NCBI GenBank assembly: GCA_963782915.1 | Contig: CAWALK010000023.1 | Location: forward strand, 64,001-128,000 | From: an uncultured archaeon | Lineage (GTDB): Archaea > Thermoproteota > Bathyarchaeia > Bathyarchaeales > Bathycorpusculaceae | Length of the DNA stretch: 64,000 nucleotides | Direction of reading: 5' to 3' | In this document: positions 3,363 through 54,925 of the stretch, one piece after another | Position numbering within the stretch: the stretch's first letter is position 1 | Layout of the letters: each line of letters opens with the position of its first letter | Notes under the pieces: generated by a model | Told to the model about the DNA's origin: nothing | What the model saw: the letters and a program-made list of their open reading frames with translations, nothing else | The model's database searches: none | Made by a program: the position numbers and the translations under genes

Positions 3363-4127
3363 CTAAAGGGTGAAAGCTGGCTCCCCAGCTACAGAGGCAA
3401 TGATTGCTTCTGCTTTTTCTTCCTGTTCTTTTGTACCCGAAACTGCTAACCAAACTGCGCCTTCTGCACCGTTTACGCCGCCAGCAGCGATCAATATAGC
3501 CTCGACGCCGCAGAGGAGTTTGAGGGCTTCGATTTCTGTGAATACTTCGCCTGGAAGCGGCAAAAAGCGGTATCCTTCGGCGCCTGGTTCATTTATTTTT
3601 TGGGCTATGGCGTTTAAGTCGCCGTTTATGCGTTTTTCTAAGCCTACAGCGACGAATAATTTTACTCTGCGTCCGAAGACTGCGGGTAGGGATAAGCCTG
3701 CTGTGCCTGCCTTTGGATGACCGATCAATAGAGCAGCCTGCTTACGCTCTAAACCTAGTGCGTTTGCACCTTTGACTATGACATCGCCTTCTTTTAGTGA
3801 ATCTACGATGTCGCCGATGGTTTTGCCCTTTTGCCATTCACCTTTAACGACGACTACATCGCCTGGGAATTGGGTTTCGTCTGAGAGTCGCCCTTCCTTG
3901 GTTACGGGTTTGTTGGGTGGCATTGTTAAGCCGCGGAAGAAGCGTTCGCGGGAAAAACCGCTGATGCCCATGCTGCGACAGATTTCTTCGGCTAAGTAAC
4001 CGTTTGTGGTTCCTGCTATGAGTACGAGTGTGCCGTTTTTGGCGGCGCTTTGGATTTGGGGGTGCCTGGCTAGGGCTTTTGCTATTAGGCGTTTGCCTGA
4101 TGAAGGTGTTAGGAGGAATTGTTTCAA
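3363..4127 (-). CDS. Conserved hypothetical protein (alpha/beta, IAGTTN and KGAN motifs)
   Basis: 254-aa ORF with protein-like composition; GGAG RBS upstream. Confidence 0.7.
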   Translation of the reverse strand: MKQFLLTPSSGKRLIAKALARHPQIQSAAKNGTLVLIAGTTNGYLAEEICRSMGISGFSRERFFRGLTMPPNKPVTKEGRLSDETQFPGDVVVVKGEWQKGKTIGDIVDSLKEGDVIVKGANALGLERKQAALLIGHPKAGTAGLSLPAVFGRRVKLFVAVGLEKRINGDLNAIAQKINEPGAEGYRFLPLPGEVFTEIEALKLLCGVEAILIAAGGVNGAEGAVWLAVSGTKEQEEKAEAIIASVAGEPAFTL

Positions 4128-4724
4128 GGGCTTGTCTCCTTGACTTTGTATTTCGGTTGTAGATTATAAGATTTGTGACTTTGTATTGTATTGAGCCGTC
4201 GATGGCCTATAGAGAATATGTTGGGCACCTCTAAGAGCAGCTTTGCTTTCTTAAATTGCAAGGAGCTGAAAAATAGTATGTGTAATTTAACAACAGGAGT
4301 TTATCGTCAAGAAATAAGCACCCCTAAACTTGCGGGGAAAGTTGCTATCTCAAAAGAACGTGTCTGTGCTTGTTTTCTTCTCCAAGAAAATACAATTTCA
4401 GCAGAGGTTTCTGTGAATGTATAAAACTATAGTTATAGATTGCCAAAATATTGCTGCTGATTTCTTTTGCGGTGGTTGTATCGCTTATCGGAACTGCGAA
4501 ATATCAAAACAGAACCTTCACAGCGGCTCTGTAGAGGCGCAAAAAACAATTAAATCATAGATTGAACGCGTATTGCTTAAAAAAGCGGACGCAAGCGACA
4601 ACTACTACAAACACAAAAAGAAACAACTATTCAGCATTACCAGCGAAATTTGGAGCTTGAAAAAATAATAAAAAATAAAAAAGATTTTATTCTTAACTAA
4701 TTGGAAAGATGATTAAGCTTACGC

Positions 4725-4868
4725 TTAGTATCTTCTTGGTGGACGTCTTTTTGCGTAGCACTCGCGGCAATATACTGGTCTTGTGCCGTCTGGTTTGAAA
4801 GGAACATCGCATTCTTTTCCACAGTCAGCGCAAGTTGCCTTGTGCATTTCTCGGTTACCGTATGACAT
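4725..4868 (-). CDS. CxxC-x17-CxxC zinc-ribbon small protein (not in ORF track)
   Basis: Translates to MSYGNREMHKATCADCGKECDVPFKPDGTRPVYCRECYAKRRPPRRY*; GGAG RBS upstream. Confidence 0.9.
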   Translation of the reverse strand: MSYGNREMHKATCADCGKECDVPFKPDGTRPVYCRECYAKRRPPRRY

Positions 4869-5173
4869 ATTTGCTGTTTCAACTCCTACTATATTCGATT
4901 GTGTGCAAAATTTACTTTTGCACGTACACCATAGTCTTATTCGCGGCTTATAAATGGCGTGCCTTATAACTCAATATTAGACATGAAAATAGCCAAACTA
5001 GCGCTAACACGCTAACCCCCGATACATTCGGACAACAAATAGTCAAACTAATATACTTAAAACACCCATATAGGTGAATAAATCGGATATACCGTCCGAA
5101 TATTGGAGAAAAAGTCAAAAAATGGCAGCCGTGGGCTTAGCTTTTTCTCGGACCCAATACAAGTGAGTGCACT

Positions 5174-5818
5174 TTGAGACAGAAAAAATCGACCTTGGGC
5201 GAACATCTCGCTCTCCTATCAGTCAAATACAGTGTCTACCCAAACGAAGTTTTCCAAGCACTAGTAATAGCCCGCAAAAACGATCGTGCCACCTGCGGTA
5301 ACCTCTCAATCGAATACCGCGGCAAACTAAAAGGCGAAACAATCTTTCTAATAACCAAAGACAACGACGTAGTTGCACAATTCCGCGTCGAAGAAGAATT
5401 TCTGCTGCGAAAAGACAACCCATTCGAAAGCTGGATGAGCACGGACAAGATTAAAAAGAAAATTGCAAAACAAAATACTGACTCCGTTTATATCCAAATT
5501 AAAGACCTCAGAGCAGGTATGAAACGGGTTAATCTTAAAGCGGAAGTTCAAGAGATCCCCAAACCAGCGCAGGTCCATACTCAATTCGGCAACACAGTGA
5601 TGGTAGTTAACGCTTTAGTCGGTGACGAAACAGGCAAAGTTAAGCTCTGCCTTTGGGAAGGGCAAATCGGCCAAATTAACGTGGGCGACCAAATTGAACT
5701 CAGGAATGGGCAAGTCTGCGTTTTCCGAGGCGAAAAACAGCTGAGACTGGGCAAGAATGGCTCGTTAACTGTGTTGAAACGGGCTGAGGTTAAACCGCAA
5801 ATCGCAACAATAGGCTAA
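5174..5818 (+). CDS. OB-fold ssDNA-binding (SSB/RPA-like) protein with extra N-terminal domain
   Basis: C-terminal IKDL..VNL....VGDETGKVKLCLW..QLRLGK matches the archaeal SSB OB fold. Confidence 0.8.
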   Translation: MRQKKSTLGEHLALLSVKYSVYPNEVFQALVIARKNDRATCGNLSIEYRGKLKGETIFLITKDNDVVAQFRVEEEFLLRKDNPFESWMSTDKIKKKIAKQNTDSVYIQIKDLRAGMKRVNLKAEVQEIPKPAQVHTQFGNTVMVVNALVGDETGKVKLCLWEGQIGQINVGDQIELRNGQVCVFRGEKQLRLGKNGSLTVLKRAEVKPQIATIG

Positions 5819-5847: not shown

Positions 5848-5901
5848 TTCTTGACTAACTCTTTCAGTCTAGGTCAAGATTCCTATACAAAAAATCTTAA
5901 A
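5848..5901 (+). repeat. Junction palindrome element, copy 1 (CTTGAC...GTCAAGATTCCTATACAA)
   Basis: Matches junctions at 7397, 8408, 9265 and 11398, with a longer spacer. Confidence 0.6.
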
Positions 5902-5935
5902 TTACCCAATACTTCGCTTTTAATTAGGTGCTAAT

Positions 5936-7324
5936 ATGCGCAAGCTTGTTTATGCCTCATTTTCTGCGGTCCTACTTCTGGCGTATTTAATGTCAGTGGG
6001 TTCTGCCTCTACCGTTTTTACTCCAGTTAGCGGCTTACTCACATCTGACACAACTTGGAGTCTAGCAAACAGTCCCTACCAATTAACAGGACCAGTCGGC
6101 GTAGCCAGTGGAGTAACATTAACTATCCAGCCCGGCGTAACCGTTGATCTGGCAAGTTTAGATATTCAAATAAATGGAACCCTAATCGCCAGAGGAACCA
6201 GCGACCAAAAAATCACTTTCAATAGCAACAGCCAAGACGCCGATATCGGTATAGCGGCAAACAGCACAAGCTGGGATGAATTAACCGGCACAGGATGCAT
6301 AATTCGAAACGCCATCATCAACGCTAATTTGGGCATCGGAAAAGTAGCGCCCAAAATCGACAGCAACACCATCACTGGACACTACCTGCTAACTTCGGGG
6401 TCCCCAATCATCTCTAACAACATTATCAACGAAGAAATTCATGTTTTAGACGGAACACCCCTCATAACCGGTAACACTATAAACAGTTTTATCGTTGGGA
6501 GCTGCAAGGGGCCAGTGACAATATCAAACAACATTATTACTGGTCACTTCGGTGATGCAATTAACGGTGCAGGCATCAGTTGCAGTGCAAACAACATCAT
6601 TACAGGTAATACTATCACCCACTTCAAGAAAGGCATCGTTTTGTTCTGTGGAAACAGCACAATAGAACGAAATGTAATCGTAGACAATACCCTCGGAATA
6701 CAGTTGGGACTATCCGGCTCAGGCACCAACGGCGTCTTCCAAGTAACCATCCGAAACAACCTGATAACCGATAACTCCAAGGGAATAAGCCTCACCGACC
6801 TATCGCAGACCCTCGCTGCGGGTGGCAGCATAGCCTTCACAATAAAAAACAACAATATCCAAGGCAACCGCGACTACGACATCTACTTGGGAATCAACAC
6901 ACCGATAAATGCCTCTTATAATTGGTGGGGTACAGCTGACCAGCAAGCCATAAACCAGACAATCTACGATGTCAAAAACAACTACAATCTCGGCACTGTA
7001 ACCTTCACTCCATACTTGACTGAACTTGATCCAGTTACACCCATCTATAATGGGCAGACACAAACCACTACCCCAACCGCAAGTACAACACCGGTGCCGA
7101 TCATTACCGAAACAGAGAACCCCACTGAGCCGCCGGCCACAACAACTCAAGACCCAGCCACGACGAATCCAACCCAGCATCCGGAGCAGCAGCCAATCAC
7201 CCAAAACAATCAGCAACTCACGCTAGGCTGGTCAGAAGTTGCAGTACTCATTGTATGCGTTGTTGTTGGGACTTTAACTGTGGCGCTGATATTACTCCGC
7301 CGAAAGCACATAACACAACAATAA
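5936..7324 (+). CDS. Secreted parallel beta-helix (NosD/pectin-lyase-like) protein with C-terminal TM anchor
   Basis: Signal peptide, I..N.I repeats, NWWGT motif, Thr/Pro linker, TM followed by RRKH. Confidence 0.85.
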   Translation: MRKLVYASFSAVLLLAYLMSVGSASTVFTPVSGLLTSDTTWSLANSPYQLTGPVGVASGVTLTIQPGVTVDLASLDIQINGTLIARGTSDQKITFNSNSQDADIGIAANSTSWDELTGTGCIIRNAIINANLGIGKVAPKIDSNTITGHYLLTSGSPIISNNIINEEIHVLDGTPLITGNTINSFIVGSCKGPVTISNNIITGHFGDAINGAGISCSANNIITGNTITHFKKGIVLFCGNSTIERNVIVDNTLGIQLGLSGSGTNGVFQVTIRNNLITDNSKGISLTDLSQTLAAGGSIAFTIKNNNIQGNRDYDIYLGINTPINASYNWWGTADQQAINQTIYDVKNNYNLGTVTFTPYLTELDPVTPIYNGQTQTTTPTASTTPVPIITETENPTEPPATTTQDPATTNPTQHPEQQPITQNNQQLTLGWSEVAVLIVCVVVGTLTVALILLRRKHITQQ

Positions 7325-7396
7325 TGAGAACTATCCACACTAAGTGGTGGCACACTCTGAGTAAATACCAGTTGCAACGTTTGTTTGTTTAGAATC

Positions 7397-7440
7397 CTTG
7401 ACAAGCCTTAGTCAAGAAACCTATACAAGAACGCTTTAAT
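7397..7440 (+). repeat. Junction palindrome element, copy 2
   Basis: CCTTGAC-aagcctta-GTCAAGAAACCTATACAAGAACGCTTTAA. Confidence 0.75.
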
Positions 7441-7464
7441 GCTCAGCTTAATTTAGTATGAATT

Positions 7465-8364
7465 ATGAACTCGCTAAGAAAGTGTATTTCATTAGTGCTT
7501 ATTCTAACTATGGTAACTTCAAGCTTATTCTTCAGCGAATTAACGGTTGCGGCATCTAAACCTTCCACGCCTCAGGTTACAATCAAATTTGTCAATGCAA
7601 CCTATCCCCTACCTACAACGGACCCATACACTGGACAAACAAGCACAATCTTGGGCGGAAATTATTCCATTGAAGTTACAATAAAGAACCAAGCCACAAG
7701 CGATTCAAATAGCAAAATTTACTACAATATCCGTTTAAAACCCTACTTTGATAATAACTCTTGGGCTGAACTTTATGGTGTATTGTATTACGTAAGTGAA
7801 AATAATGGGGACAGCACTTTCGATTATGCCTATTTCATAAACTCATATGCCCCCGCTCAATCAACATCAAGCGTTACAAAGATTATTATCCCTCTGGAAG
7901 AAACAACCGTTTATGGAAAAACAGGCACCAGCTATTATATACCGACGTATTATAATTACACTAGCCTTGTCCCTGAAGGCGGACAAGTTGATTTTCAGGT
8001 ACAAGCATTAACAGGACATGCAACTCAGAGGTGGGTTTCCAGAAGCCCATTTACCACCACTGTTGGCGGATATAATGTGGATGCAGTGGCGTTTGACGCT
8101 GCAAGCGATTGGAGCAGTACCCAAACAATAACAATCGCTGATGGCTCCGATTCAACTTATACACCCCCCGAAGACGTGACAACTTTAACCCCAATAATAA
8201 CTTCAACGCCAACTGTAACTAACACAAACTTGAATCCATCCGATTTAATTACGTTACCTTTGAGTATCTTTATCGCAATCATAATAGTGGTTGTGCTGCT
8301 TACAGTTACTCTATCAGTATTGCTTTTTAGAAGGCATCGAAAAACCATTAACTTGAGCAAATAG
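7465..8364 (+). CDS. Secreted membrane-anchored protein, paralog family (DPYTG / YYN.R.K / VDFQVQA / SDWS)
   Basis: Signal peptide, shared motifs, C-terminal TM followed by RRHRK. Confidence 0.8.
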   Translation: MNSLRKCISLVLILTMVTSSLFFSELTVAASKPSTPQVTIKFVNATYPLPTTDPYTGQTSTILGGNYSIEVTIKNQATSDSNSKIYYNIRLKPYFDNNSWAELYGVLYYVSENNGDSTFDYAYFINSYAPAQSTSSVTKIIIPLEETTVYGKTGTSYYIPTYYNYTSLVPEGGQVDFQVQALTGHATQRWVSRSPFTTTVGGYNVDAVAFDAASDWSSTQTITIADGSDSTYTPPEDVTTLTPIITSTPTVTNTNLNPSDLITLPLSIFIAIIIVVVLLTVTLSVLLFRRHRKTINLSK

Positions 8365-8460
8365 ACCTTTTCCCACGCTTGGGTGTACTCGCCCTCTCTA
8401 CCTATGGGTCAAGAAATATTGACTTGGCTTAGTTCAATATTCTATACAAGAACGCTTTTA
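8332..8460 (+). repeat. Conserved ~130-bp gene-junction repeat, copy 3
   Basis: AGGCATCGAAAA...AAATAGACCTTTTCCCAC...GTCAAGAAATATTGAC-ttggctta-G...CTATACAAGAACGCTTTTA; similar to 9189-9293 and 11327-11454. Confidence 0.75.
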
Positions 8461-8486
8461 TCGCCTCTATAACGCTAATACTAAAC

Positions 8487-9221
8487 ATGGGCAAAATCAG
8501 CAAGACTCTCGCATTATTCCTAACTCTAATAATCGCTACGTCATGCCTAACCTTACTGATGGTTAACTCTGCAAATGCCCAAACAATACCTAAACCATCT
8601 GTACCAGAGTTCACTATAAAAGTAGTACACCATTCAGTAGACCAACCAGCAATTTATTCAATAGACCCCTATACTGGAGAAAACAAGACGGTTGTTGAAG
8701 CAAAGCATGACGTATGGACAAGTGTAGTAGTAACAATCATGAATCAGCACTTCATACCCTATGCTGATGCGGAGGGGAATACAATTAATCTGTATTATAA
8801 TGTGCGCTCAAAAGGGTCTTTTTCAGAGAATTGGGTTGAGCTTGAGAACATTAATTATGGCTTCCCAACTCCAAGTCAAATTCCGTCCCCTCCAAGCGAA
8901 GATTATCTAGAGTTAGATTACACTGCAAACTACTCGTCTAATGCACAACTTGATTTTCAAGTACAGGCAATGATAGGCTTTATCCATGATATTGAAAATC
9001 CGTATGGTGGAATGGATAATCGGTATTACCCTGTTTTTACTGGTGAATCGAGCGGTTGGAGCAACACACAAACAATAACCATAGGACAATCCTCAACTTT
9101 ACCATCTCCATCGCCTACCGTTCCAGAACTATCTTGGTTAGCAATCATACCGTTGATGGTTTCAATGCTCTGTCTTGCTGTGGTACTTAGGCATCGAAAA
9201 ACGTCATACTTCAACAAATAG
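8487..9221 (+). CDS. Secreted paralog-family protein with PEF-CTERM-like sorting signal (VPEL)
   Basis: PKPSVPEFT, IDPYTG, LDFQVQA, SGWSNTQT, VPEL-TM-RHRK. Confidence 0.8.
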   Translation: MGKISKTLALFLTLIIATSCLTLLMVNSANAQTIPKPSVPEFTIKVVHHSVDQPAIYSIDPYTGENKTVVEAKHDVWTSVVVTIMNQHFIPYADAEGNTINLYYNVRSKGSFSENWVELENINYGFPTPSQIPSPPSEDYLELDYTANYSSNAQLDFQVQAMIGFIHDIENPYGGMDNRYYPVFTGESSGWSNTQTITIGQSSTLPSPSPTVPELSWLAIIPLMVSMLCLAVVLRHRKTSYFNK

Positions 9222-9293
9222 ACTTTTTACAGCGATAGGGTGTACACCCACCTCCTACTTTTTGGTCAAGAAACTTGACCAAATCAAGTCAAG
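9189..9293 (+). repeat. Gene-junction repeat, copy 4
   Basis: AGGCATCGAAAA...AAATAGACTTTTT...GGTGTACAC...GTCAAGAAACTTGAC-caaatcaa-GTCAAG. Confidence 0.7.
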
Positions 9294-9341
9294 TGCCATT
9301 TACTGGAAGCTTTATATCACAATCTTTTCATTGCCTTAAGT

Positions 9342-10578
9342 ATGCGACTTCTAAGCAAAAGCTTCCTTCTCATACTGATTTTAACAATCTTGGGGGCATC
9401 CATACTTGTTTCTATGCCTACTGGATTAGCTCAAAGTGACACAAACAAGAGTGGAATAATTAGTTCAGATACCACATGGACTAAGGCAAATAGTCCACAT
9501 AACCTTGCTGGAAATGTGCTTGTTAAGGAAGCAGTCACCTTAACTATAGAAGCAGGTGCTACCGTCAATCTCAACACCTACTATATCTTAGTCAACGGTA
9601 CACTACAAGCAAAAGGGACCAGTACTGATAAGATAGTGATAAATGGCATCGAGGGCTCTCCACCTCTAGCTCCATTGGGAAGTTCCTTAGCAATGCCCTT
9701 TACTTATGGGATTACAATCAATGGTGGCTGTACAATTGAAAACGCCATTATTAACAACGTTAGATTAGCACTTGGCAGTTCTAACAGAATTAGCAATTCA
9801 ACATTTAGTGGTTTTGTTTCTATAGGACAATCGTCAACTTTCGCGAACAATATTGCTACAGGTTTGGTTTTCGCTGGAGGAAACTCAAAAATATTAAACA
9901 ACATCGTTCACGGTGGCATTGAAACAGAATATGGGTCACCAACTATTTCTAGTAACATAATCTCTGGCGGTGGAAATGGCATCTGGTGCTATTTGTCTGA
10001 AAACGCTGTAATCACGGATAACATCATTACTGGTTGCGGTTCAGGCATTTTTGCTCAAGGTAGTAACGGTCTTATTAGTGGAAATTTCATTGCTGAAAAT
10101 ACTAATGGCATTACTGTTAACTACGGAGCTAAAGTAACAATTAAAGAAAATACAATAAAGCAAAATGAGGTTGGTATACAACTGCCCAGTTCTGCCTAGT
10201 CCAGTCATCAATTACAACAATATACAAAACAATTCTTACAGCGTTTACTTAGGGGCATCAGTTAACCTTGATGCTACCAATAATTGGTGGGGAACAACCG
10301 ATACCCAAGCAATAAATAAAACAATTTTCGACTTTAAGAATGACTTCAATTTGGGGTCGGTAACCTTCATTCCTTTCCTTTCGTCACCTAATCCCCAAGC
10401 ACCAACTGGCCCGACATTAACACCTGAACCATCAACAACTCCATCGTCTTCTGTTTCTGATAGTCCAATCCCATCTCCAACCATCCCAGAGTTATCTTGG
10501 TTGGTAATTTTGCCTTTGTTTGTTGCAATGCTCTTTATAGCGATAAAACTTAGGGGTCGGAAGGTTAGCAATGATTAG
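9342..10578 (+). CDS. Secreted beta-helix protein with IPEL sorting signal; one frameshift near 10190
   Basis: ORFs 9342-10199 and 10165-10578 together are colinear with 5936-7324 (SDTTW.ANSP...NNWWGT.D.QAIN.TI.D). Confidence 0.75.
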
Positions 10579-11359
10579 AGGTAAAACGTTTTCATTGGTT
10601 CTTATCCTGATTTTAGCAATGTCACTGTTTATTATTGCACAATCCGTTTCTGCACAAACAACACCTAAACCGTCTGTTCCCAAATTTACAGTGAGATATG
10701 TCGATTATTCATATGATATTCCACCAGTATATGGAATAGACCAATACACAGGGCAGAATACCATAATCCAAGCAGGTTATCATGTAGATAATAGCAGCAT
10801 TGAATTTACAATCAAGAATCAACCCTTCCAGAGCTATAATGATACAAATGGTAATTACAATACTTTGTACTATAACTTTAGATTCAAGGGTCAGTATGGA
10901 GATAGTTGGTCTAACTATCCAGACCTTGGTCATTCGTATGGGCGTTTTTCAGGCTTGTTCCCTGATGTTTCAGCTTCAAATTCCGACTATACTGTTATTT
11001 CAATTCCACTCCTTGCCTTAACAGCTTATGCTACTAGCACTCATTCTATTCCAATGGGTGTCAAGGTAGATTTCCAAGTCCAAGCAATCATGGGATATAT
11101 CAGTTCTACCCCCACTGGAATGTTAGCTGGTGATTTTTTCAGTTTTGAAGGAAATAGAAGTGATTGGAGCAATACACAAACAGTAACTTTAGGAAACACG
11201 GCTTTGTCATCGTCAACCCCAACATCAACGGCTTCATCACCAATCCCAACTCCAACCGTTCCAGAGTTTTCATGGTTAGTAATTTTGCCTTTGTTTGCTG
11301 CAATGCTATTTTTTGCGGTAATACTTAGGCATAGAAAAATCCCTAACTTGAAGCAATGA
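10571..11359 (+). CDS. Secreted paralog-family protein with PEF-CTERM (VPEF)
   Basis: PKPSVPKFT, IDQYTG, VDFQVQA, SDWSNTQT, VPEF-TM-RHRK. Confidence 0.8.
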   Translation: MIRGKTFSLVLILILAMSLFIIAQSVSAQTTPKPSVPKFTVRYVDYSYDIPPVYGIDQYTGQNTIIQAGYHVDNSSIEFTIKNQPFQSYNDTNGNYNTLYYNFRFKGQYGDSWSNYPDLGHSYGRFSGLFPDVSASNSDYTVISIPLLALTAYATSTHSIPMGVKVDFQVQAIMGYISSTPTGMLAGDFFSFEGNRSDWSNTQTVTLGNTALSSSTPTSTASSPIPTPTVPEFSWLVILPLFAAMLFFAVILRHRKIPNLKQ

Positions 11360-11454
11360 CCTTTTCCCACGGCTATATATGCACACCCTCTATTGTTCAG
11401 TCCATAAACCTTGACTTGGCTTAGTCAAGAAACCTATACAAGAACCCTTTAATC
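11327..11454 (+). repeat. Gene-junction repeat, copy 5
   Basis: AGGCATAGAAAA...GACCTTTTCCCAC...GTCCATAAACCTTGAC-ttggctta-GTCAAGAAACCTATACAAGAACCCTTTAA. Confidence 0.75.
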
Positions 11455-11470
11455 GTCCAAAAACCACGCT

Positions 11471-12187
11471 TTGGATATGAACAAAATCGGTAAATGTTCT
11501 ATCTTGAGTTTGGCAGCACTCTTGTTGCTTCTAAGTTGTGCTTTCGAATTAGCCAGTGCATCTGTCCCTTCCGTTCCAGAATTCACAGTAGCAACTGTCG
11601 ATCATTCATATATTGTACCAGCCGCCACTGACCCCTACTCAGGGCAAATTGACCCCAGCTATATCATCCAAAATAAAACCATTGACATAACTATCAAGAA
11701 CCAACCGTTCACATCATCCTGCAAATACATTTATCTCTCTTATGCTATTCGCGAAAAAGGATACTACGAAACGGAATGGAGAAATATTTCTTCTTTTTCA
11801 AGAAATTCAAGCCCAGGCCGTTTAGCGTCGGATTCCGCGAACACTGTGGTTTCTATTCCGTTGTACAATTATCCTGATGGTGGTGGCCAGGTTGATTTCC
11901 AGGTGCAAGCGGCTATTGTGACTGCGCATCCAATTTGGGAGGGTTCCAATATGGGTTATTGGACGTTTGAAACCAGCGATTGGAGCAGCACTAAGACAGT
12001 AACAATCCCTGCATCCTCTTCGGGTTCTCCTATACCATCGAGCGCTTCATCTAATCCAACCTCAGCACCGACCCAAACCACGGCAACTCCCGAATTTAAC
12101 ATAGTAGAAATCGCGATTCTGGCGGTATTAATCATCTTGACGGTTTTAGTTGCGCTCTTGATTGTTACATTAAGGCGACGCCGATAG
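11471..12187 (+). CDS. Secreted paralog-family protein with C-terminal TM anchor
   Basis: PSVPEFT, DPYSG, IKNQPF, VDFQVQA, SDWS, TM-RRRR. Confidence 0.8.
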   Translation: MDMNKIGKCSILSLAALLLLLSCAFELASASVPSVPEFTVATVDHSYIVPAATDPYSGQIDPSYIIQNKTIDITIKNQPFTSSCKYIYLSYAIREKGYYETEWRNISSFSRNSSPGRLASDSANTVVSIPLYNYPDGGGQVDFQVQAAIVTAHPIWEGSNMGYWTFETSDWSSTKTVTIPASSSGSPIPSSASSNPTSAPTQTTATPEFNIVEIAILAVLIILTVLVALLIVTLRRRR

Positions 12188-12527
12188 GATATACATTCAA
12201 GCTACCTCAAAAAGGCGATTTCAATGTCTTTTTTTTGTGAGGATTGGATGCGTAGGATTTTTCCCATCCCACTGTTCGGTTGTGGGAACAGTTAGTTTTT
12301 GGTTTAGGTCGATTTCCAAGTGTGGTGGAGGGTGGAGCACTTTTTTGTCCCATCTGATACGTTGAACTATATTGGTTTGGATGCGATGAGGATGGGGATT
12401 ATACTTAGAAGAATTGTCGGCATAATTACTTCAAGATACTAACAAGCGGACCTTCTTGGGTTTTATGTCTGGGGTAGTAGTTGTCGAGTGGCTGCCCAAG
12501 ACTACTACTACTCTACTACACACACCA

Positions 12528-12575
<48 letters not shown>

Positions 12576-13073: not shown

Positions 13074-13190
13074 CTTGAGAACTGCGAATGCAAAGCCGAC
13101 TGCCCCTCATGCAAGAACTCCCCAAAATGCGGAAATGAAAATCAACCAATAGACAAGAAAGCTACCCAGATTCTTTTACGACATTTCTAC
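13074..13190 (+). pseudogene. Remnant of DUF1998 Zn-binding C-terminus of an Hrq1/YprA-type helicase
   Basis: LENCECKADCPSCKNSPKCGNENQPIDKKATQILL; no start codon or helicase core upstream. Confidence 0.65.
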
Positions 13191-13380
13191 AATTATCCAC
13201 GAACGCCTAACCTCTACATCTTTATAACTAAAACAAATAAAGAGAAAAATCATGAGCTCAGCGGTCGGTACTCCATCCCTTAGTTTAAAGCCCTGGTTAC
13301 GTGCCCTTGTATGCCTCAAGGCTGCAAGCATAGGACTTTATTGCCGTACTCTGCCATATTTAATTAGGATTCGGTTTTTT

Positions 13381-13620
13381 ATGGCAACCCAAACAGACAT
13401 ACTGAGGGATGCACTCTCAGGATACAATCGCGACGACATAACCTCGATTATAGATAAGCTTGCCGGCGACAAAGACAACCTCCGAGTAGACCTAAAACAT
13501 GTAAGATTTAGCCTGAGTAACGAAAGGTTTGATGTTAATGGAGTGGTTGACTTCAAAGTTGTCCATAAAATTCCTAACGCTCACGCTGTCGTGAAGGAGA
13601 TAGTTAAGAAGTATGGTTGA
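13381..13620 (+). CDS. Hypothetical protein
   Basis: ATG at 13381 (MATQTDILRDAL...); overlaps next ORF. Confidence 0.6.
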   Translation: MATQTDILRDALSGYNRDDITSIIDKLAGDKDNLRVDLKHVRFSLSNERFDVNGVVDFKVVHKIPNAHAVVKEIVKKYG

Positions 13621-14029
13621 GCCGTCGGGGGGTATTCCGAATTTTGAGGGCGGCCAAGTTTTGCTCTCAACCGGTGATGTGGAGGTTCTGAAGGTTAATT
13701 TGAGCAGCACACACATCGATGTTGATGTGGAAGATAAGGCATTCATAAAGCGCCTAATTGAAATGCGTGACCAGCTAACACCAAAAATACCCAGCGATGG
13801 CGAAGTTGAGGACACGGGGAATCCACCCCAAATCGGTGGCATTCTATCTACTGCCCGCAGAGTCGCTGACACGCTATCTGACCGAGGCATAACCATAACA
13901 GTCTCATATAAGGGACACCGCATAGCAACCATCGGTGCCGAAGCACATCCGAAACTTCTACAGCACATAACTAAAACCCGTGGTATAGCGCTCAACAGTG
14001 TTGTCGCCGCTATTAGGCTCGTTATTTAG
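13613..14029 (+). CDS. Hypothetical protein
   Basis: 138-aa ORF coupled to both neighbours. Confidence 0.65.
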   Translation: MVEPSGGIPNFEGGQVLLSTGDVEVLKVNLSSTHIDVDVEDKAFIKRLIEMRDQLTPKIPSDGEVEDTGNPPQIGGILSTARRVADTLSDRGITITVSYKGHRIATIGAEAHPKLLQHITKTRGIALNSVVAAIRLVI

Positions 14030-14040
14030 TTGGGTTGATT

Positions 14041-14997
14041 ATGAATAAGGGACAGTTTGCAGGCCTACTTTTCCAGGCATTCACTAAGTGGCAGAAACAT
14101 AATGCTACACTTCGAGCGGCAGCGTTGACCTTCTTCACTATTCTGCCATTGCCGTCCCTTGCCCTGATAGCTGTGGCAATTCTTGCGCAGTTGTATGGGC
14201 AGCCGGCGGCACTGCAGCAGTTAATCAGTCATGTAAGTTCTATTGCAGGGCCAACTGTTGCCAATTTGTTGTATGAGGTGCTTTTGGATGCTCAGAGTCC
14301 CCTTACCGGTGCCGTAGAGTCTTTTTTTGCTGTAGTCTTCGCGTTGTTGGGTGCTTTAGGTGCTTTTTCCGTACTGCAACAATCAGTAGATGTTATCTGG
14401 GAAATCCAAGCTAAGGAACGGGGGCGGGCTGCGTTCATCAAGGAGAAAGTCTTGCCTTTTATCCTCGTCCTCGTAATCGGTATAATCGTTGTTGCTTGGA
14501 CTGCAGCTTCAACTGTGCTCTTTGACGCCGTTGTCTACGCTTTAGATCCATTTCTCGGCGGTTTTACACCATATTTGATTTGGCTTCTTCAAATTCTGCT
14601 TTCGTTCGGTTTAGGTACGCTGCTGTTTGCGATCATTTTTAGGGAACTGCCAGAGACGAAGGTTGAGTGGCGCGATGTATGGCTTGCAGCGCTGTTAACG
14701 GCCGCTGTTTTTACTGTATTGAATTATTTTTTTGGGCTCTATTTGAGTTTGGTTCAAGTGACGACGTTAGCTGGAACGGCGGGTTCTTTAATTGTGCTTT
14801 TTTTGTGGATTTACTTGGTTAATTTGTTTGTTCTTTTTGGTGCACAGTTTTCGAAGGTTTATGCCCAGGGGTTTGGTTCTCATCATAACAGGCCTGCGGT
14901 GTTAAAGTGGCCGCCTCGCCCAAAAGTGGACCATGTCGAGGTGAAGGCGGAGGTTAGCGTAAAGGTGGAAAACAAAAAAGCGTCAAAAAAAGAGTAG
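14041..14997 (+). CDS. YihY/BrkB family membrane protein
   Basis: AAALTFFT.L.LP and GSLIVLFLWIY....VLFGAQF motifs. Confidence 0.9.
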   Translation: MNKGQFAGLLFQAFTKWQKHNATLRAAALTFFTILPLPSLALIAVAILAQLYGQPAALQQLISHVSSIAGPTVANLLYEVLLDAQSPLTGAVESFFAVVFALLGALGAFSVLQQSVDVIWEIQAKERGRAAFIKEKVLPFILVLVIGIIVVAWTAASTVLFDAVVYALDPFLGGFTPYLIWLLQILLSFGLGTLLFAIIFRELPETKVEWRDVWLAALLTAAVFTVLNYFFGLYLSLVQVTTLAGTAGSLIVLFLWIYLVNLFVLFGAQFSKVYAQGFGSHHNRPAVLKWPPRPKVDHVEVKAEVSVKVENKKASKKE

Positions 14998-15121
14998 TTC
15001 AAGTTTCCCCTGAGTATTTAAGGCATTTGGGTTTTTGCCCGTTTTTATTTAGTTAAAGTAAGTCGGGTTTTTATAGAACTCCGTCGTATTTGCTTGAAAG
15101 AAGAGAGAGTGGAAATTCCAA

Positions 15122-15799
15122 TTGACTCTTATCGTTGATGACGCTGGCAGCGGCGATTTACTTTTCGGCGTTGTAGTCGGCGCATACCACCAAGAAACAG
15201 GCGAATTCAAATACGACCTCATTGACGTCAGATTCTACCAAGATATCTTCCGCGAAAAAGAATATCTGCAGGAATCCTCCCGAGTTGTCGCACGTCTTGT
15301 TTCAAAGTTTAATTTGAAACCCGACGAAGCCATTCATATCTGTCAAGGCTGCATCTTTGATGTTGCTGCTGAGGAACTTTCGAAAGTCTACGGTGAAGAC
15401 CGCGTTAAGCGAATTCATGTTGAGGGCGAAACACAGCGTTTAGTCGAAATCGCATATTTAGATGAAATACGAAATTTGGGTTACGAACCGATGGCTGAGA
15501 GGGAAGAAAAAAGAGGGAAAAGCTTCTTCCACATGATGCACTGGTTAAAAGACAACCCTGAAATGCTGCGCTATGCCAAAACAGGTTGGCCCCGACTAAA
15601 GAACTATCAGATATTCAAGGACTTTCATGCAAAACAAACGTTCAGTGCAGTTTGCAGCGAATGCGGTTCCGAATGTGAGGTGCCCTTCCAACCTAAAGCC
15701 GATAAACCGGTTTTCTGCAAAAAATGCTGGACAACCCACAAACCCGCACGTCCACACTCTAATCGACCCCGAAACAACAGGAAAACAATAAAACACTAA
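15122..15799 (+). CDS. RNase HII-like fold protein fused to CxxC-x17-CxxC zinc ribbon
   Basis: N-terminal IVDDAGSGDLLFGVVVG; C-terminal CSECGSECEVPFQPKADKPVFCKKC. Confidence 0.6.
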   Translation: MTLIVDDAGSGDLLFGVVVGAYHQETGEFKYDLIDVRFYQDIFREKEYLQESSRVVARLVSKFNLKPDEAIHICQGCIFDVAAEELSKVYGEDRVKRIHVEGETQRLVEIAYLDEIRNLGYEPMAEREEKRGKSFFHMMHWLKDNPEMLRYAKTGWPRLKNYQIFKDFHAKQTFSAVCSECGSECEVPFQPKADKPVFCKKCWTTHKPARPHSNRPRNNRKTIKH

Positions 15800-15817
15800 A
15801 GTTGGTATAATAAAAAA

Positions 15818-16138
15818 ATGAATATATTCTTAGACTTTAACTCAAGCTGGTATATACTCCTATTCGCTTTTCTTGGCGCATGGGCAATCTTGATCTTTGC
15901 ACGCAAAAAATTCAATTCAATGCACGAAATTAAAGAACAAGCGTTCTTGGCTTTCGGCGGCATGATTTCTATGGCTATGATGGAATTCTTTGCAGTCTCA
16001 ACTGGACTGTGGAATTATACGCCTGGCAACTGGCCGGTGATTTTGTGGCCAACCTACTTTGTGGCTATACTGTTCGGGTATCAGCTGCTTAGGTCTATCG
16101 AGCGTGTGCTTTTGCGTCGACCTGTAAATCCTTTTTAA
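15818..16138 (+). CDS. Small membrane protein
   Basis: Three hydrophobic segments; E.FAVSTGLWNY motif. Confidence 0.65.
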   Translation: MNIFLDFNSSWYILLFAFLGAWAILIFARKKFNSMHEIKEQAFLAFGGMISMAMMEFFAVSTGLWNYTPGNWPVILWPTYFVAILFGYQLLRSIERVLLRRPVNPF

Positions 16139-16308
16139 CAGGTTAACGCTAAATTAATTTTTTTATTTTTTTAATCAATCTTTTTCTTCAGTTTTGGTTA
16201 TTAGTGCAATCTTTTATCGAAATAAATGGCGGCGATATTTAGTCCGAACGTTTGAGAGCATAATCGGTCAAGGCACAAAATTCGAGATACAACTGCCCGC
16301 TTAACGTT

Positions 16309-16881
16309 TTGTTTGAATGCTTAAATACCGATTTACCCTTTTTTATTATAGGTTGTGTTTTGTTTTTGACTTCTAGCAGTAGGCATGTTTCTCATGGTGC
16401 GGTTGTTTGGGCTGGGAAACCCTGGGTGATTCCGGCAGCGATTTTTCGTACGGTAGGTGTGGTTGTTTTTGCTATATTTTTCTTGTTTATTGAAATGACC
16501 TTTGGCGTTGCTCTTACCCTTATAGCGGGGTTGCCTGTTTTTTTGTGGACTCTTTTTGCGTTTATTCTGGTTTGGGTTTTGAGTTTGCTTGATTTGCTGA
16601 TTTATTGGGTTTCCAACAGTTATGTACTGCGGCAAGATGGCTTAGAGGTTCGTCGTGGCATTTTTCGGCTGCATTCTTTTGTGGTGACTCCGTCGGGTTT
16701 TGGTGATTTGCTAGTTTACCAGTCGTTGGGCGGCAGAATCTTTGGCTACGGCGACTTAACCGTGAACTCTCAGGGTGAACGCCAAACAAAACTGCGGCTT
16801 GTGCGCTCGCCCTTCACAGTCGCCGATACCATGCGAGACATCATGGGTAAACCCATTGTCCGCGTGGAAAATCCTGCCTAA
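16309..16881 (+). CDS. Membrane protein with bacterial PH (bPH_2) domain; start uncertain
   Basis: Two TMs followed by Y....L.VRRG.....QS..GRIFGYGDL.V. Confidence 0.75.
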   Translation: MFECLNTDLPFFIIGCVLFLTSSSRHVSHGAVVWAGKPWVIPAAIFRTVGVVVFAIFFLFIEMTFGVALTLIAGLPVFLWTLFAFILVWVLSLLDLLIYWVSNSYVLRQDGLEVRRGIFRLHSFVVTPSGFGDLLVYQSLGGRIFGYGDLTVNSQGERQTKLRLVRSPFTVADTMRDIMGKPIVRVENPA

Positions 16882-17276
16882 AACATGCTGTTGTGGTTCT
16901 TAGGTTGCCGTACTACTGGCTGTATTACGTCCCAGTGCTCGGCTAATTTGCCATCCTCCACCCGGAAGATATCTACGATTGCTCGGCCCACGTCGGAGTG
17001 GTTGGGGATAAGGTGGCTATGCACGACCACGTATTCGCCTTCAGCGATGATGCGTTTAAAATCCAACCGTAAGTCGGGGTTGGCTTTTAGGTATCCTGAT
17101 GCATACGCGATTACGCCGTCTGGTCCGTCGGGGGCTTCGGGGTTGTGTTGGCGATAGTTGGGGCTGATGTATTGTGCTACGGCTTGTTCAGGTTTTTTCT
17201 GGTTGAATATCATGTCTAAACAGTTTTTTGCTATTTTTTTGTTGGTTGATAGGTCGTTTGCTATTTGTGTTTGCAT
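16878..17276 (-). CDS. SnoaL-like / NTF2-fold protein
   Basis: YRQHNP..PDG, IIAEGEYVVVH, DIFRVEDGKLAEHWD. Confidence 0.9.
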   Translation of the reverse strand: MQTQIANDLSTNKKIAKNCLDMIFNQKKPEQAVAQYISPNYRQHNPEAPDGPDGVIAYASGYLKANPDLRLDFKRIIAEGEYVVVHSHLIPNHSDVGRAIVDIFRVEDGKLAEHWDVIQPVVRQPKNHNSMF

Positions 17277-17979
17277 AATTGTTCCTCGTTTATGTGGGGT
17301 TTTTGTTGGGTTTTAAGGGTGTGTGGTTGCGGCTTGTAGCAGCGGGGTATGGGTCGGTTGCGTTGTTTGTCTTGAATTTTGAATGTCTAATGTACGTTTG
17401 ACGTTTGTTTGGGTCGTGGTGTGGATGTTTGCAGAGGTTTTCTTAATTGTTATGAACAATTCTCAACACCCTTTAAATCCCGCCCAGCCCATCAATGTTT
17501 TCAGAGCAAAACAAATACACGGAGAAAAATGGCATGTTGGATTTGGTAACAATCGTAACAGCAGCAGTTGTATGTGCCTTGCCCATCATATTCATGGGGT
17601 ATGTCAAATTCATGGTTCGGCGCGTGGAAACGCACACGGCAAGGTACAACAATGGTGCAGAGCGGTAGGTGCCTGTCTAAAACAGCCTCTCCCTGCTCCC
17701 AATAACCCGCAAAACCCACCCCTTTCCCTTTTTAGCCGTCAACACCATGGATTGAGTGGTGTTTTTCCCCTAATCAACCTTCAACATCAGGGATTTTTTG
17801 GTTAATATTTAATTTTTCACCAAAAAACATTTGAAAAAATAACAACGTGCACGACTAAAATTTTTGCGCTTTTACAAATTAGGCGTTGTATGTAGTTGTA
17901 GAGATATACACCCATATTACATAGCCTTATAAGCCAAAATCGCCGATGCACAAAGTCCCAACAGGAGGCGACAAAACAA

Positions 17980-18105
17980 ATGCTCAGTCGAGATTGTGAC
18001 GGATGCGAAATGCTCCACATGTGCAGTGAACGGTACCGGCGCGTCAGCAAAGACGAGAAGGTTTACTGCCCAGACGGCACAGCGCATCTTGTAGACCAAA
18101 ACTAA
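17980..18105 (+). CDS. 41-aa Cys-rich small protein (not in ORF track)
   Basis: MLSRDCDGCEMLHMCSERYRRVSKDEKVYCPDGTAHLVDQN*; GGAGG RBS and TTATAA box upstream. Confidence 0.65.
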   Translation: MLSRDCDGCEMLHMCSERYRRVSKDEKVYCPDGTAHLVDQN

Positions 18106-18583
18106 AACTCCCTTTCCCACTTTATTGTAGTAAACATTCCAGACAACAGCAGTTCTCTTTTTCAGGGGAACTTTTTAAGCACCTTTTTATCATACACCGA
18201 CTTTGGAAAAAATGTAACAACTCTCCGTCAAAACCGATTTCCGAAGGCAAAATACTCCTGCCCCCACAAGTACACCAAGAACTCGGAAACAAAATAACCA
18301 TAAAGGAAAACACCCAAAGGCTACCTATTAACAAGCAAACAATAAGTCGCCAACGAAAAACATAGGCAAATAATCAATTTGCCCTGCAATAAGTTCTCTA
18401 TATTGGGGCATAGTTAACGTGATTCATGTTAACAATATATACGGTTTAGCAAACAATTAACATTTGATAAAGGCTGTTCTCTAAATCAAAAAATGCTTAA
18501 GGACTGTTGTATGATACAGCCATGAATTCAAAAAAAGGTGCGATATAGCTAACAATAGCTAAAAATATTGTAAAATGAAAAGT

Positions 18584-18705
18584 TGCTGCCAGCTTTCCCA
18601 GGTTCACGTGGCCTAAGACCACACTACAGCTGGGAACGGAACACGGTTTAACTTCTGAGTTCGGTATGGGATCAGGTGGAACCCGTGCCCTTTGACCGGC
18701 AAACC
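18584..18705 (-). rRNA. rrf: 5S rRNA (stand-alone)
   Basis: Minus strand contains CCACCTGATCCCATACCGAACTCAGAAGTTAA; ends pair (TTGCCGG / CTGGCAG); about 122 nt. Confidence 0.93.
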
Positions 18706-18972: not shown

Positions 18973-20099
18973 CAGTAGATCAAAAAATCGTGTTTCACCT
19001 CCTCTAAAAATCAACCGTAAGCCTCCAAATCAGGCAGCCAAGACAAGACTAAACACAACCTAACAGCATTCTTAAGAGCATACGTCCTAACACGCCTTCT
19101 ACGCCTGAAATTCCACAAAACCCACAAATTATAGAGTACAACCGCCAAAAAGAAATACAGCTGCCTCAACCTATAGAGCTTAGAGGTAGTCTTAGCCAAA
19201 AACAACCCAATCATACGATAAGAAGTCTCAATCCCCCAACGCCGCCTAAACGTCTTCTTAAGCACCTTGGGCTTAAACATGGTGTTGGTAGCAAAAATAA
19301 GCAGCTTCTTGTTTTGACGCACAGTTACAAGCCTAAAAGTCGCCTGATCCAAAACCGACTTCTTATGCGTAGTCGTTGTATAAAATACATCCAATCCGGC
19401 TCTTAAGGGCTCCTTATGCCAAGGAATATGCATTATGTACTTGATTTTGGCGTTATCTAGATAGTTTATCACTTGAGTGGAGAAGTAGCCTCGATCCAAC
19501 AGCACCAGCTTAACTGTTAAGCCCAACTCAGAGACACAGTCTAGGAGATACTTGACATGCCACAGCTTGCTTCTATGAATCATTGTTGCTGCTGCTAAGG
19601 TTAATCTCTGACCGTTGTAGAGAACACTTATCGTTGCATATCTGTAGGCATGGTTTGAGCCGTTCTTGTGTTGGGTTCCCACTACGCCTTTTGCTTTAGG
19701 GTCACCGTAGTACATTTCATCATGCCAGTCTATGGCTACAACCAGTGGCTTGTTTAGGGCGCCTTTTTGTTTCATTTGCTGGATTGTTTGCCGGTTGATT
19801 TGGAGTATTTGTTGAGGGTTTTGTTGTTTTAGGTGGTTTCTGACTGTTTGGCCGCAGAGTTGGAGGTTTTGTGCGCACCCTTCTATGTAGCTGTTGTCTA
19901 TTGCTGCTAGGATGAGTGTTTTGGTGGTTTCTTGGCTATTTCGGGCGTGTTTGAGATTAAGGAAGCTGCCGATTGTTTCTTTAAAATATAAGTAAGCCTT
20001 TAGCTTATCCCTTCGTCTAGGGATGGCGCTGTAGCTAGTCATGCTTGATACCCAAAAGCTGGTTACAGCGCTATTCCGATAAAAACTTTTGATCTACTG
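18973..20099 (-). mobile_element. Insertion sequence, ISH3-like (IS4-type DDE)
   Basis: 13-bp terminal inverted repeats CAGTAGATCAAAA; 4-bp target duplication ATAA at 18969-18972 and 20100-20103; single transposase. Confidence 0.9.
19011..20042 (-). CDS. DDE transposase (ISH3-like)
   Basis: VAIDWH, LLDRGYF, RRRWGIETSYR motifs. Confidence 0.92.
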   Translation of the reverse strand: MTSYSAIPRRRDKLKAYLYFKETIGSFLNLKHARNSQETTKTLILAAIDNSYIEGCAQNLQLCGQTVRNHLKQQNPQQILQINRQTIQQMKQKGALNKPLVVAIDWHDEMYYGDPKAKGVVGTQHKNGSNHAYRYATISVLYNGQRLTLAAATMIHRSKLWHVKYLLDCVSELGLTVKLVLLDRGYFSTQVINYLDNAKIKYIMHIPWHKEPLRAGLDVFYTTTTHKKSVLDQATFRLVTVRQNKKLLIFATNTMFKPKVLKKTFRRRWGIETSYRMIGLFLAKTTSKLYRLRQLYFFLAVVLYNLWVLWNFRRRRRVRTYALKNAVRLCLVLSWLPDLEAYG

Positions 20100-26975: not shown

Positions 26976-27237
26976 CTACTAACCGACTAAATATAAAAAC
27001 CTGAAGTGCATCCAGGCGATTGTTCTGTAGCCTTCTTCAAGAGTAGCAGCGCCAATTCCAGATACAATGGGCAGTATTTTTCCCCAAATATTTCATTTGA
27101 ACCCCGTGTTTTGTTTGTCTCCATGCGGTTCATTAATAATTTGGGCCTCTAGATGTAACATAGTAAGTAGGCGATTGGTTCTATGGGACCGTCACCCTTT
27201 AATTCCAAAACCATTTCTAGCATACCGCTCCGGTGAT

Positions 27238-44407: not shown

Positions 44408-44658
44408 TTTGTTTCACTTCTTGTTATTGTTTCCTTTTTAGGGCGGAAAAGTATATAACTATTGTGTAGTAAGACTAAAGATACACGTTACACGTATGAA
44501 AAAACCCTGAAAAAAGCCCTGAACAACATAGCACCTGAAAAAAACACGACAGCAATAACTTAAATTCAACCCAAAAAACCCCAAATTCAGTAACCAAACA
44601 ACACACCAATCAGCAGCGGCACAAAACTAATATTGCTCAAAAAAGCATATTCCACTCA

Positions 44659-44752
44659 GTTCTTGGGGAGCTGGAAAATGATCCGGCTGAGAGGATGCCT
44701 ATGTGGCATCGACCCTGCGAACCTGAACCAGGTAATACTGGCGGAGGGAAAA
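44659..44752 (+). ncRNA. TPP (THI-box) riboswitch
   Basis: GGGGAGC...GGCTGAGAG...GACCC...ACCTGAACCAGGTAATACTGGCGGAGGGAA consensus directly upstream of thiT. Confidence 0.9.
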
Positions 44753-44758
44753 CAAGTA

Positions 44759-54859: not shown

Positions 54860-54925
54860 GATATAGTGGTTTGTCGCCATGTTACTCACTGAAAACAGCT
54901 TCTTTGAAATCGAATAAGAGGGTTT

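Follow-up and report, generated by a model that had tools for sequence, protein, structure and literature searches.

A putative operator within a promoter shared by many surface-protein genes of Bathyarchaeia

The stretch of archaeal DNA analysed here (64 kb, 45% G+C; hereafter the window) carries between positions 5936 and 12187 an array of six genes, all on the plus strand, which belong to two families, A (A1 and A2) and B (B1 to B4), and five of which are preceded by an exact or altered copy of a palindromic junction, TTGAC-N8-GTCAA. A first-pass annotation of the same DNA had described six same-strand, secreted and transmembrane-anchored genes of two families, a description that open reading frames (ORFs), Pfam matches and sequence features confirm, and had read the junction either as part of a recombination-driven cassette system served by a tyrosine recombinase or as a shared operator spread by duplication. 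Focusing on this palindrome, we describe its anatomy in the window and in related loci, its position relative to promoters and genes, and its relation to the exchange of gene segments among the arrays.

Each of the six array proteins begins with a hydrophobic segment and has, at the C-terminus, a second hydrophobic stretch that leads into basic residues. Both A1 and A2 pass the Pfam gathering score for right-handed beta-helix/NosD proteins (Table 1). A2 is broken by one frameshift, the frame changing near 10180-10200, and B3, which has no promoter of its own, begins within the last codons of A2. Genes split into adjacent frames were also seen at 27067-28618 (pyruvate kinase), 34116-36585 (class I aminoacyl-tRNA ligase) and 50656-52636 (P-type ATPase) in addition to 9342-10578 (A2); these are either real pseudogenes or assembly indel errors, and little weight should accordingly be put on the frameshift in A2.

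Family B, whose four window members are 36-38% identical to one another, matched no Pfam or NCBIfam model in the profile scans of the window ORFs. It comprises 1865 database proteins at E<=0.001, the named ones being proteins of Bathyarchaeota or 'Crenarchaeota' metagenome-assembled genomes (MAGs), and its ESM Atlas matches were unnamed Bathyarchaeota clusters only; the closest relatives of B1 (P0005, P0007, P0010 and P0012, 73-84% identical) lie on metagenome contigs. An AlphaFold2 model of B3 (predicted local distance difference test, pLDDT, of 82.7) forms a beta-sandwich whose hydrophobic ends are helices (residues 5-26 and 235-254). This model had no PDB match at E<=0.001, and its best PDB matches, cytokine-receptor FN3 domains and a Lactobacillus S-layer domain, reached template-modelling scores of at most 0.25; we therefore name the fold a beta-sandwich and nothing narrower. 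The conserved ends and variable middles reported in the first-pass annotation hold only moderately at the protein level, where mean pairwise identity, at 30-42% over the N-terminal third, falls to 9-22% across alignment columns 121-195 and returns to 24-38% beyond them. A P-E-F/L motif stands directly ahead of the C-terminal helix in B2, B3, B4 and A2; A1 and B1 lack it.

Table 1. Positions of the array genes, the putative operators and the gene-end motifs in the window
Feature	Position	Strand	Description
Degenerate putative operator before A1	5851-5902	+	TTGAC 5851-5855, 17-nt spacer, GTCAAG 5873-5878, CTATACAAAAA 5883-5893, TATA-like CTTAAAT 5896-5902
A1	5936-7324	+	secreted right-handed beta-helix (NosD-like), C-terminal transmembrane helix and basic tail; Beta_helix PF13229, 33.9 bits
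Putative operator and TATA-like box before B1	7384-7442	+	core palindrome 7398-7415, fourth half-site region with CTATACAAGAA 7421-7431, TATA-like CTTTAAT 7434-7440; matrix 52.7 bits
B1	7465-8364	+	family-B surface protein, 299 amino acids
Gene-end motif after B1	8360-8403	+	stop codon, then ACCTTTTCCCACG... with T-run; nhmmer E=1.9e-9
Putative operator and TATA-like box before B2	8405-8463	+	GTCAAGAAA 8408-8416, TTGAC 8419-8423, spacer ttggctta, GTTCAA 8432-8437, CTATACAAGAA 8442-8452, CTTTTAT 8455-8461; matrix 40.0 bits
B2	8487-9221	+	family-B surface protein; tail PEL-SWL...RHRK
Gene-end motif after B2	9217-9257	+	nhmmer E=8.2e-5
Putative operator and TATA-like box before A2	9261-9319	+	GTCAAGAAA 9265-9273, core palindrome 9275-9292, TATA-like box 9310-9317; matrix 29.1 bits
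A2	9342-10199 + 10165-10578	+	beta-helix; PF13229 56.2 bits, NosD PF05048 38.6 bits
B3	10571-11359	+	family B; start overlaps the end of A2 (ATGA overlap), co-operonic with A2
Gene-end motif after B3	11354-11395	+	nhmmer E=7.2e-6
Putative operator and TATA-like box before B4	11397-11455	+	core palindrome 11411-11428, CTATACAAGAA 11434-11444, CTTTAAT 11447-11453; matrix 64.5 bits
B4	11471-12187	+	likelier start ATG 11477; family-B surface protein; tail PEF...RRRR
Variant putative operator outside the array	54946-55012	-	four tandem TTAGTCMANAAAC units, two then CTTGAC; N9 centre, not N8; TATA-like CTCTTAT

The 64 kb contain only three exact copies of TTGAC-N8-GTCAA, at 7398, 9275 and 11411, where 0.05 would be expected, and none of 100 shuffles reached this count; the enrichment of the palindrome is real and far beyond chance. 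Altered copies at 8419 and 5851 complete the set of five junctions that had been claimed, and the 8-bp spacers given for four of the five (aagcctta, ttggctta, caaatcaa and ttggctta) proved correct on re-reading. The right arm before B2 reads GTTCAA, with one extra T (a one-base insertion), and the copy before A1 stays below threshold in both weight-matrix scans on account of its longer spacer. The sequence said to follow the palindrome is also there: CTATACAAGAA is exact at 7421, 8442 and 11434 and has one mismatch at 5883, and a TATA-like box comes after it. GTCAAGAAA was found 10 times in the window, against 0.91 expected. Neither the motif scan nor the weight-matrix scan detected a copy of the element after the last gene, B4.

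The same palindrome recurs in related genomes. In 77 loci (1.27 Mb; labelled L0xx) fetched around family-B genes, nearly all from Bathyarchaeia MAGs and without the window's own genome, TTGAC-N8-GTCAA was present 29 times, versus 0-8 times for spacers of 4-15 and 0-7 times for ten control palindromes. Still more enriched was GTCAA-N6-TTGAC, with 45 occurrences versus 0-6 for spacers of 2-12. One layout is common to 26 of the 29 TTGAC-N8-GTCAA sites, and in the 25 unique sites columns outside the selected letters are conserved as well: GTCAAGAAA at -11 to -3, TtTACgA at +24 to +30, an invariant A at +33 and CTTTTAT at +36 to +42, the first of these flanks lying 6 nt upstream of TTGAC and the second 6 nt downstream of GTCAA. 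The whole element thus reads GTCAA-N6-TTGAC-N8-GTCAA-N6-TT(G/t)AC, two 16-bp palindromes set 24 bp apart with a dyad about the centre of N8, over ~40 bp, and TTGAC-N8-GTCAA is the inner pair of half-sites of this larger dyad-symmetric element. At 20 bits or more the element was detected in 34 of the 77 loci, the maximum in shuffled loci being 18.5 bits. Complete Bathyarchaeia chromosomes that carry it include OY970286.1, OY970280.1 and OY969706.1.

A variant copy lies on the minus strand outside the array (Table 1), where it reached 12.9 bits with a relaxed matrix, versus a maximum of 11.4 bits in 20 shuffles. The GTG start of a 59-codon CxxC...HxxC ORF (54710-54889, minus strand) is placed 24 nt past the TATA-like box of this variant, and this ORF is the sole non-secreted gene seen with the element. 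One may speculate that it is a candidate autoregulated factor. As the regulator itself it is no more than a lead, its Pfam matches being only sub-threshold (zf-RING-like, DUF2175) and the 77 loci holding no homologue.

Scanning the window and the loci with a corrected matrix produced 83 matches above 14 bits, 64 of them with a downstream ORF. The TATA-like box follows the element by ~8 nt, and in 38 of these 64 cases the start codon comes 23-25 nt past the box, as it does for four of the five window copies (B1 and A2, 24 nt; B2, 25 nt; B4, 23 nt from ATG 11477). The genes behind the 64 matches comprise 42 of family B, one of family A (A2 of the window) and 21 others. When 13 of these 21 were searched against Pfam together with a 480-amino-acid protein of L047 earlier filed under family B, 3 of the 14 matched NosD/Beta_helix and 11 had no family above the cut-off; by eye, 12 of the 14 have an N-terminal hydrophobic segment, those of L023 and L046 being without one. 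In three loci (L061, L071 and L039), a single symmetric element lies between the two outward-facing TATA boxes of divergent genes. The element therefore keeps a fixed distance to the core promoter, before non-homologous genes and across species. In archaeal promoters a TATA box with its BRE is expected some 26-28 nt ahead of the transcription start. Measured from the centre of the TATA-like box, the start codon is ~27-28 nt away, and excerpts of PMC8553660 put the archaeal TATA box ~28 nt upstream of the transcription start. The start codon falls where transcription is expected to begin, from which we infer leaderless or nearly leaderless transcripts. Bacterial-type promoters and terminators showed no excess between 5700 and 12500 (9 versus 16.4 expected and 8 versus 5.3 expected, respectively), and Rfam gave no match within the array.

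This geometry bears directly on the idea that the palindrome is the core site of a tyrosine or serine recombinase encoded elsewhere, which would reorder surface-gene cassettes as integrons or dif modules do, and which we regard as very improbable. Inverted arms on either side of an 8-bp spacer in most gene junctions, an identical spacer (ttggctta) in two window copies, at 8424 and 11416, and the intermixing of A and B genes in the arrays all recall such a site. Xer, Cre and integron-type sites have arms of ~11-13 bp flanking a crossover spacer of 6-8 bp. Here the symmetric arms measure only 5-6 bp, TTGAC(T)/(A)GTCAA, the outer flanks form a direct repeat, TTAGTCAAGAAAC, and not an inverted one, and the spacers vary among sites within one genome. 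In addition, the element is locked to a TATA-like box and a start codon across species and is common to divergent genes. The first-pass annotation had itself named a motif at fixed distance from the starts of unrelated genes as the observation that would speak against recombination; such is the arrangement found, and the recombination-site reading is not supported. Nor does the array look like that of an integron, in which cassettes without promoters are read from a single promoter outside them and each closes with a recombination site: here a TATA-like box of its own stands 23-25 nt before each unit's start and no site follows the last gene. Among 61 window ORFs scanned against Pfam there was no Phage_integrase or resolvase, and the sole mobile-element gene found in the window encodes a DDE transposase (19011-20042).

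The homology between junctions, reported as extending over 100-130 bp from the RHRK-coding end of one gene into the promoter of the next, was recovered by self-blastn as blocks of 48-132 nt at 72-90% identity: 8332-8463 against 11327-11455 (72% over 132 nt), 8332-8416 against 9189-9273 (78% over 88 nt), 7393-7440 against 11406-11453 (90% over 48 nt) and, between the tails of A2 and B3, 10465-10554 against 11240-11329 (87% over 90 nt). The 40 nt that separate the stop codons of B1, B2 and B3 from the next element form a conserved motif of their own, made of the stop, ACCTTTTCCCACGG and a GTGTAC-like stretch. Searches with nhmmer (E<=1) recovered 33 copies of this gene-end motif in 10 of 78 sources, three in the window and 30 in nine loci, often beginning at the stop codon and standing behind both B and non-B genes. 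Its T-run is likely to act as an archaeal terminator, judging from sequence. A hairpin (GGGTG..CACCC) considered for the motif was dropped, RNAalifold having predicted no pairs on 24 copies. The 100-130 bp junction is thus a row of three functional pieces, the anchor-tail coding sequence, the gene-end motif, and the putative operator with the TATA-like box of the next gene, and it is because these stand in a row that the homology runs into the promoter of a gene of the other family. A and B genes are also adjacent or operon partners in L002, L007, L019 and L038; their mixture in the window is therefore an old association and not a random assembly of cassettes.

The junctions might also be taken as the remnant of a recent tandem duplication or gene conversion, with a palindrome devoid of function. 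Tandem paralogs whose junction blocks are 72-90% identical would agree with this, but the protein bodies are only 36-38% identical, so that non-coding junctions are better conserved than the genes they separate, and the same half-sites and spacings recur in the 34 element-bearing loci of other species before non-homologous genes. We give this explanation hardly any credence. The alternative in the first-pass annotation, a shared operator spread by duplication, was right in kind as regards the operator and incomplete as regards its range, which is class-wide and not the outcome of mere local duplication.

Comparisons of gene content located the edges of the differences. Relative to the L018 operon, which holds two B genes, A2 has a promoter and first 10 codons that are 89% identical over 107 nt, and the first tail and second-gene start of that operon match the window at 82% over 294 nt; between these common end pieces lies a family-B body in L018 and a beta-helix body in the window. 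A2 agrees with a family-B gene of L018 in its first ~10 codons and in its PEL-SWL...RGRK tail, the edges falling after ~codon 10 and just ahead of the PEF motif. B3 is likewise a mosaic, with a signal peptide nearer L018 gene 2 (25/30 identical positions versus 11/29 for gene 1) and a body nearer L018 gene 1 (47/64 versus 28/63 for gene 2). In the syntenic pair L026/L074, flanks that are 92-98% identical enclose a ~0.9 kb block at 45-65%, which spans the 5' end of a divergent gene, the promoter and the B body and has its edges in signal-peptide- and tail-coding sequence. L002 and L003 differ by one beta-helix gene inside an operon free of any palindrome, with edges directly before two tail-coding repeats; L064 and L065 differ by 8.6 kb versus 1.3 kb, a difference that has copies of the gene-end motif at its limits, ~40 nt upstream of the element; and L033 and L036 differ by an insertion past a stop codon. 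In the last three pairs the B genes are as similar as their flanks, and strong allele divergence against conserved flanks is seen in one of the four syntenic pairs (L026/L074).

The palindrome was a breakpoint in none of the four syntenic pairs, nor between the window and L018, and the gain or loss of genes exactly at the motif, which a cassette system had led one to look for, is not what these comparisons display. L002/L003 shows gene gain or loss where no palindrome exists at all. Two observations do favour a recombinase site: the L018 homology starts at the edge of the element, and provirus genes lie directly beside the element in three related loci. Short arms, a fixed distance to TATA-like box and start, use by divergent genes and edges outside the palindrome leave the tyrosine-recombinase cassette system of the first-pass annotation unsupported. 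The cassette-like impression nevertheless had a real basis of another sort, for gene slots have traded their ectodomain bodies while retaining promoter, signal peptide and tail, as the window and L018 show. The simplest mechanism, and probably the one behind these swaps, is homologous recombination between the conserved ends.

We consider it likely, from comparative sequence evidence, that the palindrome is a regulator site in a promoter common to many Bathyarchaeia surface-protein genes and not a recombination site; the element is best explained as a putative new, class-wide operator/promoter architecture for such genes. The operator would be situated directly upstream of the B recognition element (BRE) and TATA box of a promoter class dedicated to secreted, C-terminally anchored surface proteins. 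A dimeric regulator of helix-turn-helix type could occupy each 16-bp palindrome, with two dimers per promoter, and by abutting the BRE it would control the recruitment of TBP (the TATA-binding protein) and TFB (transcription factor B). Activation appears likelier than repression, because the site covers neither the TATA box nor the start. The array itself would have grown by tandem duplication and been reshuffled by homologous recombination between signal-peptide 5' ends and tail 3' ends.

Several observations weigh against this interpretation. Clustering of 1729 ORFs revealed no transcription-factor family that tracks the element: the co-occurring regulator that the first-pass annotation had suggested looking for does not recur beside it, and even the commonest candidate occurs in only 6 of the 77 loci, an ArsR-like helix-turn-helix protein. 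No match of at least 14 bits exists in 39 of the 77 loci, and at 15 bits or more the element is missing before 77 of 108 family-B ORFs and all 8 family-A ORFs of the loci, some of which, not all, are operon-internal. The first weight matrix was built from palindrome-selected sites, an ascertainment that the later relaxed matrix corrected, and, as the loci were chosen via family B, the link to surface proteins is partly a matter of ascertainment too. The transcription starts are predicted from spacing. Finally, the element has provirus genes as immediate neighbours in L018, L064 and L065, the first half-site is where homology of the window to L018 sets in, and the L064/L065 difference ends ~40 nt upstream of the element; the second of these is what a mobile module would predict as well, and the third sits comfortably with one.

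Such a module, consisting of gene-end motif, operator and TATA-like box, would have been spread by proviruses or integrative elements with surface genes as cargo, so that horizontal spread more than selection on a host regulon would explain its distribution, a scenario that we find improbable. The provirus genes that adjoin the element-bearing B gene in L018, L064 and L065 encode a terminase large subunit (phrog_2, E=1.2e-27), a ParB-like protein and phrog_11143. Large ORFs lie beside the terminase at L018 2-3812, where portal, capsid and scaffold were recognised by eye only, and a membrane-protein gene of the terminase's cluster (L018 4148-5041, minus strand) carries the element. Further in favour of a module, the end pieces of the A2-B3 operon are 82-89% identical to those of the provirus-adjoining L018 operon, and the promoter at 11400-11452 of the window is 94% identical over 53 nt to that of L020, the proteins behind them being only ~40% identical. 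However, no PHROG match was found in the 4 ORFs flanking the window array, a tblastn search with B3 gave no match in 50,697 phage records, and most element-bearing loci show no provirus genes, the tested ones being L018 and L064 only. A mobile promoter would moreover still need the host transcription machinery and a regulator, and it is therefore an addition to the operator reading and not a replacement for it. The head-tailed provirus genes are located at L018 1-8739, L064 5893-8529 and L065 254-1242.

Building on the operator reading, a wider scheme of surface-coat diversification in Bathyarchaeia can be sketched, which we put forward only tentatively and hold to be rather unlikely as a whole. 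Slots that have an operator/promoter in common, a 5' end coding for a signal peptide, a 3' end for a PEF-like anchor and the gene-end motif would all be under one regulator, and their ends would serve as homology arms through which ectodomain bodies are swapped between slots, between genomes and by way of proviruses with such genes. The bodies in circulation may include the beta-sandwich of family B, NosD-like beta-helices and others.

Archaea of the class Bathyarchaeia abound in sediments and soils and for the most part lack cultured representatives, and a 40-bp operator of fixed geometry would offer a handle for defining a regulon, capturing its regulator and predicting leaderless starts. 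Family B emerges as very large and uncharacterised; its anchored beta-sandwich proteins and their beta-helix partners are probably main constituents of the cell surface, and the genes of these arrays show mosaic evolution between conserved ends. The more exciting prospect of an integron-like archaeal cassette system is removed.

Profile searches of the rest of the window identified CdvA-like, TrmB, CdhD and other archaeal families, and a gene of RPA/SSB type with an OB-fold stands immediately upstream of the array. Directly downstream of the array is an (ACT)n microsatellite (26.7 copies, 12501-12575). A lone 5S rRNA gene (18584-18703, minus strand), 92-98% identical to copies in five loci, adjoins the DDE transposase gene, which is on the minus strand. 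A thiamine pyrophosphate (TPP) riboswitch (44654-44765, 60.1 bits) precedes a YuaJ-type thiamine transporter, whose listed ORF start at 44633 is therefore too far upstream. The non-coding sequence at 4671-4924 is conserved in L057 (84%) and L014 (73%) and has no Rfam match even at E<=1; Rfam likewise returned nothing in the conserved non-coding region 4100-5250. Between 22685 and 26975, a Mrr-type restriction endonuclease, an unknown protein of 456 amino acids and a SNF2 helicase are encoded consecutively and may constitute a defence cluster.

The protein tails resemble PEF-CTERM/archaeosortase signals (TIGR03024), since B2, B3, B4 and A2 end with P-E-F/L, a hydrophobic helix and a basic cluster. 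They differ from them in that the TIGR03024 scores of B2, B3 and B4 (13.6, 13.6 and 11.5 bits) are all under the curated cut-off of 23, A2, A1 and B1 gave no match to this model, A1 and B1 are without the motif, and profile scans detected no archaeosortase in the window. Matches of the tails to STEVOR, far under the cut-off, were rejected, as they reflect just a transmembrane helix and a basic tail. In L018, 2.4 kb from the B operon, a 1784-amino-acid protein (13082-18436) has at its N-terminus a domain of the exosortase/archaeosortase family (TIGR04178, 58.3 bits), to which long repeats are fused, and may be an enzyme that processes PEF-like tails.

Like dif/XerA, integron attC and pdif sites, the element has inverted arms that enclose a spacer of 6-8 bp at the gene junctions of an array; unlike them, it has arms too short and spacers that vary, each gene has its own TATA-like box, the breakpoints are elsewhere and no recombinase was found among the window ORFs scanned. 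The exchange of ectodomain bodies calls to mind, as analogies only, two systems of variable surface proteins. In VARTIG, a hypervariable Ig-domain module of Thermococcales, archaeal beta-sandwich surface proteins have variable parts seemingly exchanged between genomes by recombination (excerpts of PMC8416519); family, lineage and gene organisation are different, and the variable unit in Bathyarchaeia is the whole ectodomain between signal peptide and anchor. The MASP proteins of Trypanosoma cruzi, which are eukaryotic and unrelated, also combine conserved signal and anchor ends with a variable centre and tandem arrays (excerpts of PMC2691823).

Full-text literature searches found no description of the motif, of Bathyarchaeia promoters or regulators, or of family B, and the element differs from the archaeal regulator sites found in the literature by its GTCAA half-site, its 40-bp layout of four half-sites and its lineage. 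Archaeal regulator sites upstream of promoters are exemplified by Ptr2 of Methanocaldococcus jannaschii. Another is that of Sta1 (excerpts of PMC1635249), such sites being dyad-symmetric or repeated, as here. A further parallel in layout is the fla promoter of Methanococcus maripaludis, which depends on EarA, an activator proposed to aid TFB recruitment (excerpts of PMC5512572): in both cases a regulator site, putative in Bathyarchaeia, would lie just upstream of a BRE and TATA box that serve genes for surface structures, with recruitment of TFB and TBP as the proposed mode of action.

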